Source of the DNA: Gammaproteobacteria bacterium
GTDB taxonomy: Bacteria > Pseudomonadota > Gammaproteobacteria > JABDGN01
NCBI GenBank assembly: GCA_034110705.1
Contig: JAWUYR010000014.1
Location: 1-61,673 of the forward strand
Reading direction: 5' to 3'
DNA: 61,673 nt
The first letter of the stretch is position 1. The number at the start of each line of letters is the position of its first letter. This document shows, piece after piece, positions 3,001 through 9,000 of the stretch. The position numbers were made by a program.

Positions 3001-6000
3001 CCCAAAGTGCACCATGCCACCGGCTTTAGGGTATGCGGTTGCTAACTCAGCAAAAGTAAATGCGATAAATAACATTAGCACACCACCTAATACCCAAGAA
3101 ACGGTAGCGGCAGGCCCTGCAATTTGTGCTGCATATAAAGGACCGAATAACCAACCAGAACCCACAATACCACCAACGGCGGCAAATAATAAACCTATCG
3201 AACTAATAGAACGTTGTAATTTCATCGAGAAAAACCTTTAATTGTTGAATCTAAAAAATGATTTACCTTGGAATAACAATATAAAGTGAAGCACCGTCAT
3301 ACCAGCTAAATAAGTTGGCAGATAAAAGAGAGGAGGTTACGTACATCAATAGAAGCGGCAATCGCTGTGCTGCTGGTGATTAATATTGTAGAGATTGATG
3401 TCTTCATAGACCCAATGAAAACATATTTTTTTTCTGAACACAAGGCGCTTTATAGATATTTCTTCAGCATGAGTAAATCTTGCTGTGATTTACGCTTTTC
3501 TTTAGGTGAGCGTAGTAAATAAGCGGGGTGATACGAAACAAGAAGCGGTATATTTTGGTAATGATACTCTTTACCTCGCATGCTCTCCAAAGCCTCGGTC
3601 GTCTCTAGTAAAACATGAGCGGCTCGCCCTAAAATCAGAATAATTTTCGGCTGTAATAATGCTATTTGCCGCTCTAAAAAAGGCACGCAAGAACTAAGTT
3701 CTTCTGCCTGCGGATCACGCCCACTCGGTGGATGACACTTAAGAACATTAGCAATATAAATTTGCTCGCGTTGTAAACCAATTGAGAGCAACATATTATT
3801 TAACAATTGACCGGCACGCCCAACAAAAAGCTCGCCTTGCTTATCTTCATTAACCCCTGGTGCCTCACCAACAATTAACAAATCAGCTTGCTGATTACCA
3901 ACGCCAAAAACCACATGATTTCGAGTTTGAGCAAGGTCACATGCATGACAAGCTTCAGCTTGTGCTTGTAATGATGCCCAAGTATCGTCTTCGACCGCAA
4001 TTATATGCTTAATTTTAGGGGTATCCGTGCAAATAACCGGCTGTTCTACAACACGACACTCAGCATCTCGAGGCTGCCAAGTTTCAATTCCTATTGCTTT
4101 TAAATATTCAGCTTTATTCATATTGACCATTCCCACCGAAGAAGATGAGATTTAGTTAATGCTTCGGCACAGTCGCAGATGCAACGGCCAATAAGTTAGC
4201 AAACACCGGTTGTGTAATATCATTATCCGCCAAAGTTTGCTCACCTTTACCGGTTTTTACTAAAACAGAATCAATACCAGCACTTGTCGCAGCCTGTAAA
4301 TCACGTAATGAATCACCGACTAAAACAGCATCCTCTGGCTCAATCGAAAAATGCTGACATAAACCAGATACCAAGCCTGGTTTAGGTTTACGACAGGCAC
4401 AATTATCATTTGGCCCATGCGGACAATGCACCATTAAATCGATATGCCCACCAACCTCATGTGCCATAATCACCATTTTACGATGCATCGCATCTAAAGT
4501 ATCTTCGCTAAAAAGCCCGCGAGCAATGCCCGACTGATTAGTGGCAACAGCAACAATTTTGCCAGCATCGTTTAACAATGAAATTGCTTCTAAACTACCA
4601 GGAATAGGCAGCCACTCATCTTCTGACTTAATAAAGTCAGGCGAGTCGAAATTAATCACTCCATCACGATCAAGAATAAAAAGTTTTTTAGTTGATAAAT
4701 CCATTGATCATTTCCAGCTAATCTAATTGTGACACATCAGCCACGGTTAAAAATAATTGACGTAATTGATTAAGCAACAACAAACGATTGTGCTTCACTG
4801 CTGCATCTTCGGTCATAACCATAACATCCGTAAAAAATTGATCGACCGGTTGCTCTAGCTCATCTAAGTTTTCAAGAACAGCTTGGTAATTTTTTTCAGC
4901 AACGAGTGGCTTAATATGCGCTTGCTTTTTCTTTATTAATTCTGCAAGCGCAATCTCCGCCACCTCTGTTAATAAAGTTGTATTAATCTCACCTTGCACA
5001 TCGAGCGCGTTTTGTTTTGTTAAAATATTTTTAACTCGCTTATTAGCCTGCGCCAAATTTTCGGCCTGTGGCAGCTTGCTAAACTCGGCTACCGCTTGTA
5101 AACGTTTGTCAAAATTAACAAGGCTTACCGGCGTTACTTCGCTCACTGCAGAAAAAAGTTTCGCAGCAACATTTTTATCAAAGTAGTAATGCTTTAAACG
5201 CTCGAGTATATAAGCAAAAACTTGCTTGCCTGTTTCAGGCTTTACGATATCACCATAAACGGCGACTTCATTATTAATTAAATCAGCTACGTTTATATCT
5301 AATTGTTTTTCTAATAAGATACGCACTACACCAATGGCCGCACGACGCAAACCGAAAGGGTCTTTGTCACCCGTAGGTTTTTGCCCAATTGAGAAAATAC
5401 CCACCAAAACATCCAACTTATCGGCCAAGGCCACACAGGTTGCCACATCATTACTTGGTAAAGCATCGCCGGCATAAGTAGGTAGATAATGTTGCGCCAT
5501 TGCAGCACACACACTTTCCGTTTCGCCATCATGCTTAGCATAATAACCACCCATGATACCTTGAAGCTTAGGAAACTCATTAACCATATTGCTCAATAAG
5601 TCACACTTGGCTAACAAACCAGCGCGCTCTGCTTGTGCAATATCGGCATTCAATTGCTTGGCAATTAAACCACTTAATTTACTTAAACGCAGGCTGCGCT
5701 CATAAAGCGTACCCAACTGCTTTTGAAAAATAACACTTTTTAATTCTGGCAAATGATCACAAAGCTTATGCTTTAAATCAGTTTCATAAAAGAAAGCCGC
5801 ATCTGACAAACGCGCATGCATTACTTTTTCATTACCGGCGATCACTCGCTTAGGATTTTTACTGTTAATATTGGCGACGAAAATAAAGTGCGGTAATAAT
5901 TTACCTTGCACATCAAATACCGGGAAACTTTTTTGATGACTTTGCATGGCAGAAATTAAAGCCTCTTGTGGCACTTGCAAAAAGGCAGGCGCAAAGTTGG

Positions 6001-9000
6001 CCGTTAATACTTCAGGGTGCTCAACAATTGCCGTGACTTCATCAAGCAAAGCAGCTGGATAAATCGCTTGGCCATTAACTGCTTCAGCCGCTTTAACAAC
6101 ACCCGCTTCAATATGTTTTTTACGATCGGCAAAATCGACCATAACATAGCTTTTTGCTAAGCTGTCTTTATACTCGCCTGGATGCTGAAGGTGTATAGCT
6201 TCTGGCGCATGAAAACGATGCCCATAAGTTGAGCGACCGGTTTCTTTTCCTAAAACCGTTGTTGGAACAATATCGTTTCCAAACAACATCAACACCCAAT
6301 GTACTGGGCGAATAAATTCAGAAGCGTTATCACCCCAACGCATTGGCTTAGCAATTTGTATGGTTTTAATCGCCGCGGTTACGATGTCGGCTAACAAGTC
6401 GATAGTGTTACCACCAGATTGCGTTGCCTGATAATAAATTTTTTCATCTTTACCAACGATTTTTGTACTTAGCTTCTCTAATTCAACACCACAAGAACGC
6501 GCAAAGCCTTGCAGAGCTTTACTGGCATTACCCTCGGCATCATACGCGGCTTTAATATTAGGACCAAAACGCTCGATTTCTTGCTCAGGTTGCAACAGAG
6601 GTAAGTTGCTGACATAAACAGCTAAACGACGCGGTGCGGCAAACCATTCAATTTTACTCACCTGTTTATCAAACAAGCGAGCGTCACATAAACCTTTTTC
6701 AATACCCTTTAAAAAATCTTGTGCCAAACGCGGCATCGCTATTGGAGGCAGCTATTCGGTACCAATCTCAACTAAAAAATCTTCGGTCTTCATACGGTCT
6801 CCTTACATAAAGAAAAGTTTAAGGCTTCACGTGCCGCATAATAAAGCTCGGCCACTCCACGCGACAATGTGCGAATGCGTAAAATATAACGCTGCCTTTC
6901 GGTCACTGAAATGGCGTGGCGCGCATCTAATAAGTTAAAGGTATGTGATGCCTTGTTAACCATTTCATAAGCAGGCAGTGGTAAATCTAAAGTCAGCATG
7001 CGTTTTGCATCTTCTTCAAAGCTATCAAACTGTGCAAATAATAAATCCGTATCGGCGTGCTCAAAATTATACGCTGACATTTCGCGTTCGTTTTGCATAA
7101 AAATATCACCATAAGTAACATTACCGGTTGGTGTTTCAGCCCAGACTAAATCAAACATGCTGTCGACATTTTGCAAATACATCGCCAAACGTTCTAAGCC
7201 ATAGGTTAACTCACCTGTCACCGGCTTACACGACAAGCCACCGATTTGTTGAAAATAGGTAAACTGTGTTACTTCCATTCCATTTTGCCAAACTTCCCAG
7301 CCTAAACCCCAGGCACCTAAAGTTGGTGATTCCCAATTATCTTCAACAAAGCGAATATCGTCGACCAAAGGATCAATACCAACGGCGCGCAGTGAATCAA
7401 GATACAAGTCTTGGATATTCTCTGGCGATGGCTTTAAGACCACTTGAAACTGATAATAATGCTGTGTGCGATTTGGATTTTCGCCATAACGCCCATCGGT
7501 GGGCCGGCGGCAAGACTGCACATAAGCCGCGCTCCAAGGCTCAGGCCCAATCGCCCGTAGGAATGTCGCTGGGTGAAACGTGCCCGCGCCAACTTCCAAA
7601 TCCAGTGGTTGCATCAAGACACAGCCTTGCTTTGCCCAATATTGCTGCAAGGTCATAATCAATCCCTGAAAAGTGCTCGCGGATAAATTGCTATTTTCTG
7701 CCATTAGAAACTCATAATTTTGTTGAAAAGTGATATTAACTCATTGATATTATTTGACAAGGCTTTTGCTTGGTATCAATGCCTAAAAAAGCAAAATCAC
7801 CTCAGATTAAGAGCTTATTGTTAATCAGCCAATGACTAATTCCTACTTAATATTACTACGCTATCATCTAGCCCAAAATATATAAAAATAAAAATGAACA
7901 TGAAACCTTATATACAAAAGATGTTGCGGGCAGCACACATCGACATCGTGCTATTTGAGCAAGAAAACCACCCAAGCTACTTTAAACAAACAGTAGAGAT
8001 CATACGCCAGCAGATCTATCGAGGACAGTCAGTCTCAATGATTCATGAACTCTATGATGAAAACACCTGCTTAATTGCCATTGACTCATATTCAAAAATA
8101 TTACTCGGCGTGATTATTTATAGCGTCAACGAAAAAAATAAAGCAGAAATTCTTGTCTTGGCTAAAAGTCATTTAACAGGACATCATCGTCATGGCATCG
8201 GAACCCTTCTTCTGATGTCAGCTTACGCCGAACTTGAAGAGCGAGACGTTACATTAGTAAAATTACAAAGCGCACCTTCCGCGATTAACTTTTATAAAAA
8301 GAAAGTTGGTATGCGAGCAGTCCAGAGTGAGCATAGGAGTAATTTTTTTAAAGACAGAGTCCAATTCACTGACAAAAAACGAAGATTGGTGACAAGAAGT
8401 GCTTATTCAACCTATTATCAATATTACAAAGTTAACCTGCTAATTAATGAGAAGGACCCTATACACGGCCTTTATGCAGCAACCTTAACTTATTATATAG
8501 ATGGACAACCAAAAGAACGGCTTGCTTTAATTGCTAATCTTCCTTCTGCGCTAAAGCAAGCTGGCGCATCAGCCTTTCAAGCCTACTTATACTCACCACA
8601 ATTTTTATACGACGAGGATCCTAATCTTGTTTTTATAGGCGTATATTTTAGTCATCAGGATGTCGCGGCACTTAAAATACAAAATGCTTATTACAAGTAT
8701 CGATATAGAAAAAAATATGGCTACTTAACGGAAACCGCGGCGGCTAACTATATTACTTATATGGAAGAAAATTTTTAATATATGACTATAACTCGTCACG
8801 CGCGATAACCGAAACGCATGCTATACAGCCTTACTTAACAGGCTAATAGCATCTAACCTGTTTTTACTGAGCACCACTAATGCTGGAATATGAGCATCAC
8901 AAAGTTTCGCCAAACTTTGTGGTGTTTTTATTAAGGCTAACTTTTCTTGGCGCGATAATTTTTTAATTTTTAATTCTATTTTGAAAATAGAACTATAATC

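Follow-up and report, generated by a model that had tools for sequence, protein, structure and literature searches.

An amber codon at the invariant Glu14 of glyS in an uncultured gammaproteobacterium, followed by a candidate restart codon at Met20

The essential gene glyS encodes the beta subunit of the unusual heterotetrameric glycyl-tRNA synthetase (GlyRS). We analysed this gene and its surroundings in a 61,673-nucleotide (nt) stretch of DNA from an uncultured gammaproteobacterium (GenBank assembly GCA_034110705.1, the whole of contig JAWUYR010000014.1), hereafter the window. In the deposited sequence, glyS was confirmed to carry a TAG stop at codon 14, within the N-terminal EIGTEELPP motif. 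The event appears to be of an ordinary kind, a nonsense lesion of one base or a base error, in an unusual place. With all routes to a living cell taken together, we judge a genuine lesion to be slightly favoured. If the lesion is real, a beta subunit would most likely be made by termination and then reinitiation at Met20. The full scenario of a real GAG-to-TAG change with restart at Met20 is put forward tentatively.

The conserved N-terminus of GlyS is interrupted at codon 14

On the minus strand, glyS lies directly downstream of glyQ, and the parts of the junction and of the two genes are as follows.

6790-7704, minus strand: glyQ, GlyRS alpha subunit, 304 amino acids (TIGR00388, 526 bits, profile positions 2-292 of 293), with its TGA at 6792-6790.
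6799-6804, minus strand: AAGGAG, the Shine-Dalgarno sequence for the original glyS start, read from the sequence within the 3' end of glyQ and conserved in the relative L001.
6793-6791, minus strand: ATG, the original glyS start; ATGA at 6793-6790 overlaps the glyQ TGA.
6755-6793, minus strand: glyS codons 1-13, the counterpart of beta-strand S1 in domain B1 of E. coli GlyS (PMC8464048).
6752-6754, minus strand: the in-frame TAG, glyS codon 14, placed at the invariant Glu14 by the sequence and the homologue alignment.
6737-6751, minus strand: the 15-nt spacer from TAG to ATG, CTGCCTCCAATAGCG, codons 15-19 (LPPIA).
6734-6736, minus strand: the Met20 ATG, candidate restart codon, ancestral in the clade and not a newly arisen start.
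4718-6736, minus strand: the rest of glyS from Met20, 672 codons, intact, with TAG as terminator (TIGR00211, 804 bits).

From the original start, the minus strand reads ATG AAG ACC GAA GAT TTT TTA GTT GAG ATT GGT ACC GAA, then TAG, and then CTG CCT CCA ATA GCG ahead of the Met20 ATG. The ATGA junction at 6793 and the replacement of the motif's Glu by TAG, both of which had been claimed in a preliminary description of this DNA, are thus borne out. No uninterrupted open reading frame (ORF) that includes the EIGTEELPP motif is present, and relative to its orthologues the gene is disrupted. The ORF from Met20 matched the TIGR00211 glyS profile far above the cut-off of 300 bits, from position 17 to position 684 of 684, so that profile positions 1-16 of the family correspond to sequence that precedes Met20 and spans the stop; the Pfam domains of GlyS (PF02092 and PF05746) were both found. 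Homology runs through the stop, with residues 5-13 and 15-19 matching near-invariant columns.

Alignment of glyS from related genomes, which the preliminary description had proposed as a check, showed a Glu codon at the site throughout. Glu occupied the column in all 119 homologous proteins and at all 83 genomic loci, with GAG at 62 loci and GAA at 21. Residue numbering is 1:1 with that of E. coli GlyS, so the TAG corresponds to Glu14. The three closest relatives (L001-L003) have GAA, and a one-step origin of the TAG therefore needs a GAG ancestor. That description had called GAG to TAG a single change; such an ancestor is plausible. Four codons further on, codon 18 is ATA (Ile, 6742-6740), where 112/119 homologues have Lys, and the change of Lys18 to Ile was found on this contig alone. 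Met20 is shared with the homologous proteins P0003-P0007 and P0011.

The closest structural reference, E. coli GlyRS beta (PDB 7EIV, 7YSE), resembles the window's GlyS in its N-terminal numbering, motif, glyQ-glyS operon and pair of Pfam domains, and differs in having Glu14 and Lys18 where the window has a stop and Ile. In E. coli GlyS, the K18A substitution has little effect, whereas removal of the whole B1 domain abolishes tetramer formation (PMC8464048).

The 45 nt directly after Met20 (6690-6734, minus strand) are 98% identical to L001 and form the most conserved stretch of the glyQS alignment (mean 68%). Judged from this alignment, a constraint on the mRNA at this place is possible.

Beyond its start, GlyS is well conserved

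Conserved columns were defined as those with at least 97% conservation across the 119 homologous proteins (n=120). GlyS retains 117 of them, and the three misses are Glu14, I145 and Q146. The last two lie in a tRNA-facing loop and were considered as compensation for the N-terminal loss; this was rejected because the sister protein P0003, with an intact N-terminus, deviates at the same positions (I145, H146). In relative-rate tests, window-specific against L001-specific changes numbered 19/13 for GlyQ, 85/65 for GlyS, 26/19 for GmhB and 55/21 for the permease. The window lineage was slightly faster in all five genes of the cluster, and no excess was specific to glyQS. Both the conserved columns and the relative rates leave relaxed selection across GlyRS unsupported outside a short patch at the glyQ-glyS junction, to which the excess of radical changes is confined. 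No second lesion was found in the 2 kb of glyS, while putP and the MYND-finger gene described below have two each. On this sequence evidence, the glyS lesion would be either recent or not biological; if it is real, it is recent, since the remaining 672 codons are unbroken and conserved.

Three substitutions are unique to this GlyQ: P64S (7515-7513), G296N (6819-6817, GGC to AAC) and P298S (6813-6811, CCT to TCT). They affect positions that are conserved in 73-74 of 74 homologues (GlyQ from the fetched loci). P64S adjoins the RRPTDGRYG motif. The other two belong to the LGFP motif at the C-terminus and lie 60-65 nt away from the TAG of glyS.

The gene order glyQ-glyS-gmhB-UDG-permease is common to the three closest relatives. 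Two contigs of a related species (L086 and L087; JGI 3300036199, SRR12363485), with permeases at least 90% identical, carry unrelated genes upstream of UDG in place of gmhB-glyS-glyQ, and synteny around glyQS is thus not fixed in the group.

The other testable lesions on the contig are real

Four further genes in the window are broken by stops or frameshifts.

44758-46238, minus strand: putP (sodium/proline symporter) pseudogene, with GAA to TAA and a frameshift.
53929-54651, plus strand: outer-membrane beta-barrel gene, with an in-frame TAG at 54184-54186 (CAG to TAG).
22849-23775, plus strand: secreted tandem-repeat protein, with TGA at 23074-23076 (TGG to TGA).
17660-19195, plus strand: MYND-finger gene in three overlapping ORFs, with frameshifts at a T9 run (17901-17909) and an A6 run (~18715).

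In putP, the TAA at 45155-45153 replaces the Glu of a conserved ASQKE motif and the frameshift lies at a G5/T5 run near 44905; both are present in a JGI contig (L091) that aligns with 0 gaps over 12.9 kb. The TAG of the outer-membrane gene was found in two JGI samples (contigs L089 and L090), and two intact homologues (57-63% identity) have Gln at this site. The TGA of the repeat protein sits where its own later repeats read TGG (Trp), and the truncated 75-residue product is also present in JGI/IMG. The three ORFs at 17660-19195 look like one gene broken by frameshifts, the last piece of which ends in a eukaryote-type MYND zinc finger (PF01753). Exact JGI/IMG matches were obtained for the truncated products of putP, the outer-membrane gene and the repeat protein, and for the first MYND fragment. 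The same, nearly clonal population is represented in JGI 3300041950, 3300041954 and SRR25824425 at 99.94-100% identity with 0 gaps. All checkable lesions recur in independent JGI assemblies and are therefore real; the lineage is demonstrably accumulating inactivating GC-to-AT mutations and homopolymer frameshifts.

A generally error-prone, long-read-like assembly was ruled out, since none of the 71 homopolymers of at least 6 nt in conserved genes breaks the frame and ~20 housekeeping genes match their profiles over the full length. GyrB deviates at 0/325 conserved columns and MnmG at 0/61.

Proposed restart at Met20 and the case for a genuine lesion

In the reading that we tentatively prefer, an unprogrammed and recent single-base change would have turned the Glu14 codon from GAG into TAG in the DNA of this uncultured gammaproteobacterium. 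Ribosomes would enter glyS through the intact AAGGAG/ATGA coupling with glyQ, translate 13 codons and terminate at the UAG, after which a fraction of them would reinitiate at the Met20 AUG, 15 nt downstream. The product would be a beta subunit without residues 1-19, that is, without strand S1 and the EELPP loop of domain B1, and trace near-cognate readthrough would add a little full-length GlyS.

The arrangement at the junction fits such a restart in that a stop and a restart codon lie within ~20 nt of each other on a translated mRNA, with the Shine-Dalgarno sequence and the ATGA coupling intact upstream. The distance dependence of termination-reinitiation has been measured in E. coli (PMC10666635; PMC6728339). 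In native E. coli gene pairs, a spacing of +14 nt cuts coupling by 40-80%, leaving 20-60%, and +38 nt abolishes it (PMC10666635). The 15-nt spacer in glyS is thus within the range where E. coli pairs still reinitiate.

Several observations speak for a lesion that is present in the cells. Every other testable lesion on the contig recurs in independent assemblies. The confirmed putP lesion, GAA to TAA, likewise turns the G of a Glu codon into T. The original start signals of glyS are intact, and the rest of the gene shows neither decay nor an acceleration specific to glyQS. Furthermore, only 2.7% of random hits in glyS would strike the 19 codons before the first in-frame ATG; codons 1-19 are the only place where a stop spares nearly the whole of GlyS, and we count this for a real lesion.

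The evidence against this reading concerns both the restart and the base itself. No purine-rich Shine-Dalgarno sequence lies within the 15-nt spacer ahead of Met20, as the preliminary description had rightly stated together with the distance from the stop (6736). Residues 1-19 include the most conserved motif of GlyS and a strand of the B1 sheet. This sheet binds the alpha subunit, and B1 removal breaks the GlyRS tetramer (PMC8464048), so the truncated beta subunit may be inactive. It appears doubtful that a GlyRS beta subunit could function in nature, and be active enough for the cell, without the invariant N-terminal strand and the EELPP motif.

As for the base, no other assembly that covers 6752-6754 was found, and glyS is the contig's only uncorroborated lesion. 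JGI and Logan contigs of the same population end, on the glyS side, at window position 5900. Exact and degenerate DNA patterns for the site gave no match in JGI metagenomes, and exact-product look-ups for GlyS, GlyQ, an antisense ORF and the next ORF gave none either. The 11 differences between the window and the JGI contigs of the population (L088, L089, L091) are all transversions, with no transitions (positions 2946, 36389, 36530, 40878-40882, 42312, 42329, 46077, 53517 and 54873). Such a spectrum is unusual for natural single-nucleotide polymorphisms and suggests that one or both assemblies contain sequencing errors, or else that an 8-oxoguanine-type mutator is at work. At least two of the differences (permease A94, DnaN H15) trace to the JGI contigs, as errors or private variants, and the gyrB cluster of three differences in 5 nt may be on the window side. 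In addition, the last 66 nt of another JGI contig (L084, from 3300041950; window 3559-3624) hold eight mismatches, among them two GAG-to-TAG changes in the UDG gene. This is clearly a contig-end artefact, and spurious amber codons do occur in these data sets.

The TAG also falls within a patch of four radical changes. Over ~80 nt at the junction (window 6740-6819), GlyQ has G296N and P298S and GlyS has the stop at Glu14 and K18I, and radical changes at conserved columns were concentrated there, with 4/14 inside the patch against 7/305 elsewhere (p=6.5e-4). Both GlyS changes are transversions (G to T in the TAG, A to T in K18I), 12 nt apart. The three GlyQ base changes are transitions, one of them a tandem pair, and resemble natural mutation more than they do the errors of these data sets. 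A structural coupling of the alpha C-terminal LGFP motif with the beta N-terminus could explain the patch; in E. coli GlyRS, the alpha C-terminus and the beta N-terminus are ~55 Å apart (PMC8464048).

Both deviant GlyS codons, TAG and ATA, create an AATAGC heptamer motif (6738-6758, minus strand), CGAATAGC and CCAATAGC, 13 nt apart. Across the window the motif was not significantly over-represented (6 matches against 4 expected). The shared motif could reflect templated mutation or a context-specific error.

A sequencing or assembly error is accordingly a strong possibility, if one somewhat short of even. The organism would then have GAG at codon 14, and perhaps AAA at codon 18, with a patch of wrong bases at a spot of low coverage, and would make a normal 691-residue GlyS. 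This would suit an essential gene with an invariant Glu14 and an otherwise perfectly conserved sequence, as well as the two closely spaced transversions, the all-transversion differences between assemblies, the ambers at the end of L084, the gyrB cluster, the clustering of radical changes and the lack of corroboration. It fits poorly with the reality of all the other testable lesions, with the good support that the interior of a 61.7-kb contig usually has, and with the rarity of a random error in codons 1-19. Moreover, three of the five base changes in the patch are transitions, so part of the patch looks like real evolution.

Alternatives to restart if the lesion is real

A dead glyS in a cell with a second synthetase was also considered. 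Here glyQS would be at the first step of pseudogenisation, and another GlyRS (a second glyQS or an alpha2-type enzyme) would charge tRNA-Gly. The lineage is losing genes, and GlyQ has P64S, G296N and P298S as unique changes, while GyrB and MnmG have none at the same stringency. Outside the junction patch, however, GlyRS is as conserved as the controls, no acceleration is specific to glyQS, and glyS has no second lesion, all of which make this explanation unlikely. The preliminary description had listed a wrong base, restart at Met20 and suppression; the list was right as far as it went, with suppression the least supported of the three, and a backup GlyRS was missing from it. Its anatomy of the site stands as well, and what it had overlooked were the contig's other lesions, confirmed in independent assemblies, and the local patch at the junction.

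Full-length GlyS could alternatively be made by readthrough of the UAG, through near-cognate misreading (typically as Gln) or a suppressor tRNA encoded elsewhere in the genome. The frame is the same on both sides of the stop, and the base after it is C, which gives a weak termination context. The second in-frame TAG, that of the outer-membrane gene, replaces a Gln, and insertion of Gln there would restore the wild type. Yet spontaneous readthrough is usually 1% or less, and in GlyS it would place a residue other than Glu at an invariant Glu. TAG is not avoided in the window: it terminates 10/50 long ORFs, including yidC, parB, two permeases and glyS, and at yidC and the permeases the profile match reaches the end, or near the end, at the TAG. 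None of the TAG-ending ORFs showed a tandem-stop signature, and no tRNA gene was found in the window. Since TAA and TGA occur among the other lesions, one suppressor alone would not account for all of them. We regard readthrough as quite improbable.

Within this class, a natural amber (or ochre) suppressor of the lineage, for example a supE-like tRNA-Gln(CUA), might make UAG leaky and keep GlyS and the outer-membrane protein functional. The resemblance to known amber suppression and natural UAG readthrough lies in an in-frame UAG with the frame kept downstream and a second UAG at a Gln codon; the differences are that no suppressor tRNA was seen in the window, that TAG is freely used as a terminator and that the other lesions are TAA and TGA. 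If such a suppressor existed, Gln would be restored in the outer-membrane protein, GlyS would carry Gln at Glu14, and nonsense mutations would be free to accumulate. We think this very improbable.

Programmed recoding, or a genetic code in which TAG regularly encodes an amino acid, has two in-frame TAGs in 61.7 kb in its favour and a negligible probability: TAG ends conserved genes at their profile ends, and the two in-frame TAGs replace different residues (Glu and Gln) where relatives have sense codons (GAG or GAA in all 83 glyS loci). Reassignment of TAG is thereby ruled out. A frameshift or ribosomal hop was ruled out likewise, as the downstream ORF is in frame and neither a slippery site nor matching take-off and landing codons were seen. 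No stimulatory RNA or known RNA family was found: in folding, the junction did no better than shuffled sequence (z=0.11), and the Rfam search gave no family at gathering score anywhere in the window. Programmed recoding and code change are thus unsupported, and there is no evidence of a new decoding mechanism.

Genomic context of the window

The nearest GlyS is 60% identical and the nearest GyrB cluster 82%, with named GyrB matches, including Legionella and Kangiella, at ~70%; among GTDB representatives, identity reached 56% at best. The window holds the region of the chromosomal origin at 31322-42240, where the minus strand carries rpmH-rnpA-yidD-yidC and the plus strand dnaA-dnaN-recF-gyrB. 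Perfect DnaA boxes (TTATCCACA) occur at 34057, 34935, 38702 and 38789, and the sign of the GC skew switches near 34 kb. The genes rsmG-parA-parB (13708-16021) and mnmG (24656-26572) are ~8.6 kb apart, with lineage-specific genes between them (kinase, MYND and repeat protein), and the region (window 15407-26572) looks like an accessory island. Two further genes are eukaryote-like.

20306-22657, plus strand: 783-residue protein with a Ser/Thr kinase domain (PF00069).
7894-8778, plus strand: GNAT acetyltransferase with an IQ-like motif in its C-terminal part.

The kinase, MYND and IQ-motif proteins, together with the pseudogenes, suggest a host-associated, Legionellales-like lifestyle.

Discussion

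Restart after early nonsense codons is known from the early ambers of lacI and from T4 rIIB. As in those cases, the stop of glyS is met after a few codons, the next in-frame AUG is no more than ~15 nt away, and ribosomes arrive from translation upstream; at such short range, no strong Shine-Dalgarno sequence is needed. The likeness has its limits. The lacI and rIIB mutants come from the laboratory and affect non-essential genes with a dispensable N-terminus, whereas glyS is essential and would lose its most conserved motif, and the restart proposed here is read from the sequence.

The setting also resembles gene decay in host-restricted bacteria, with GC-to-AT nonsense mutations and homopolymer frameshifts, and several genes near glyS carry such lesions, confirmed across assemblies. 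Such decay normally spares aminoacyl-tRNA synthetases, however, and glyS shows one lesion only and no acceleration.

If the stop is an error, it carries a caution: a contig whose pseudogenes are otherwise genuine can still be wrong at a local cluster of bases within an essential gene, and gene callers will silently give a truncated GlyS that starts at Met20. A real stop would mean that a wild bacterium survives although an amber codon interrupts an essential synthetase gene at codon 14. Either the GlyRS beta subunit could then do without its most conserved motif, or restart or readthrough would supply enough enzyme, or a second GlyRS would exist. Each of these possibilities bears on which parts of this unusual heterotetrameric enzyme are truly required.

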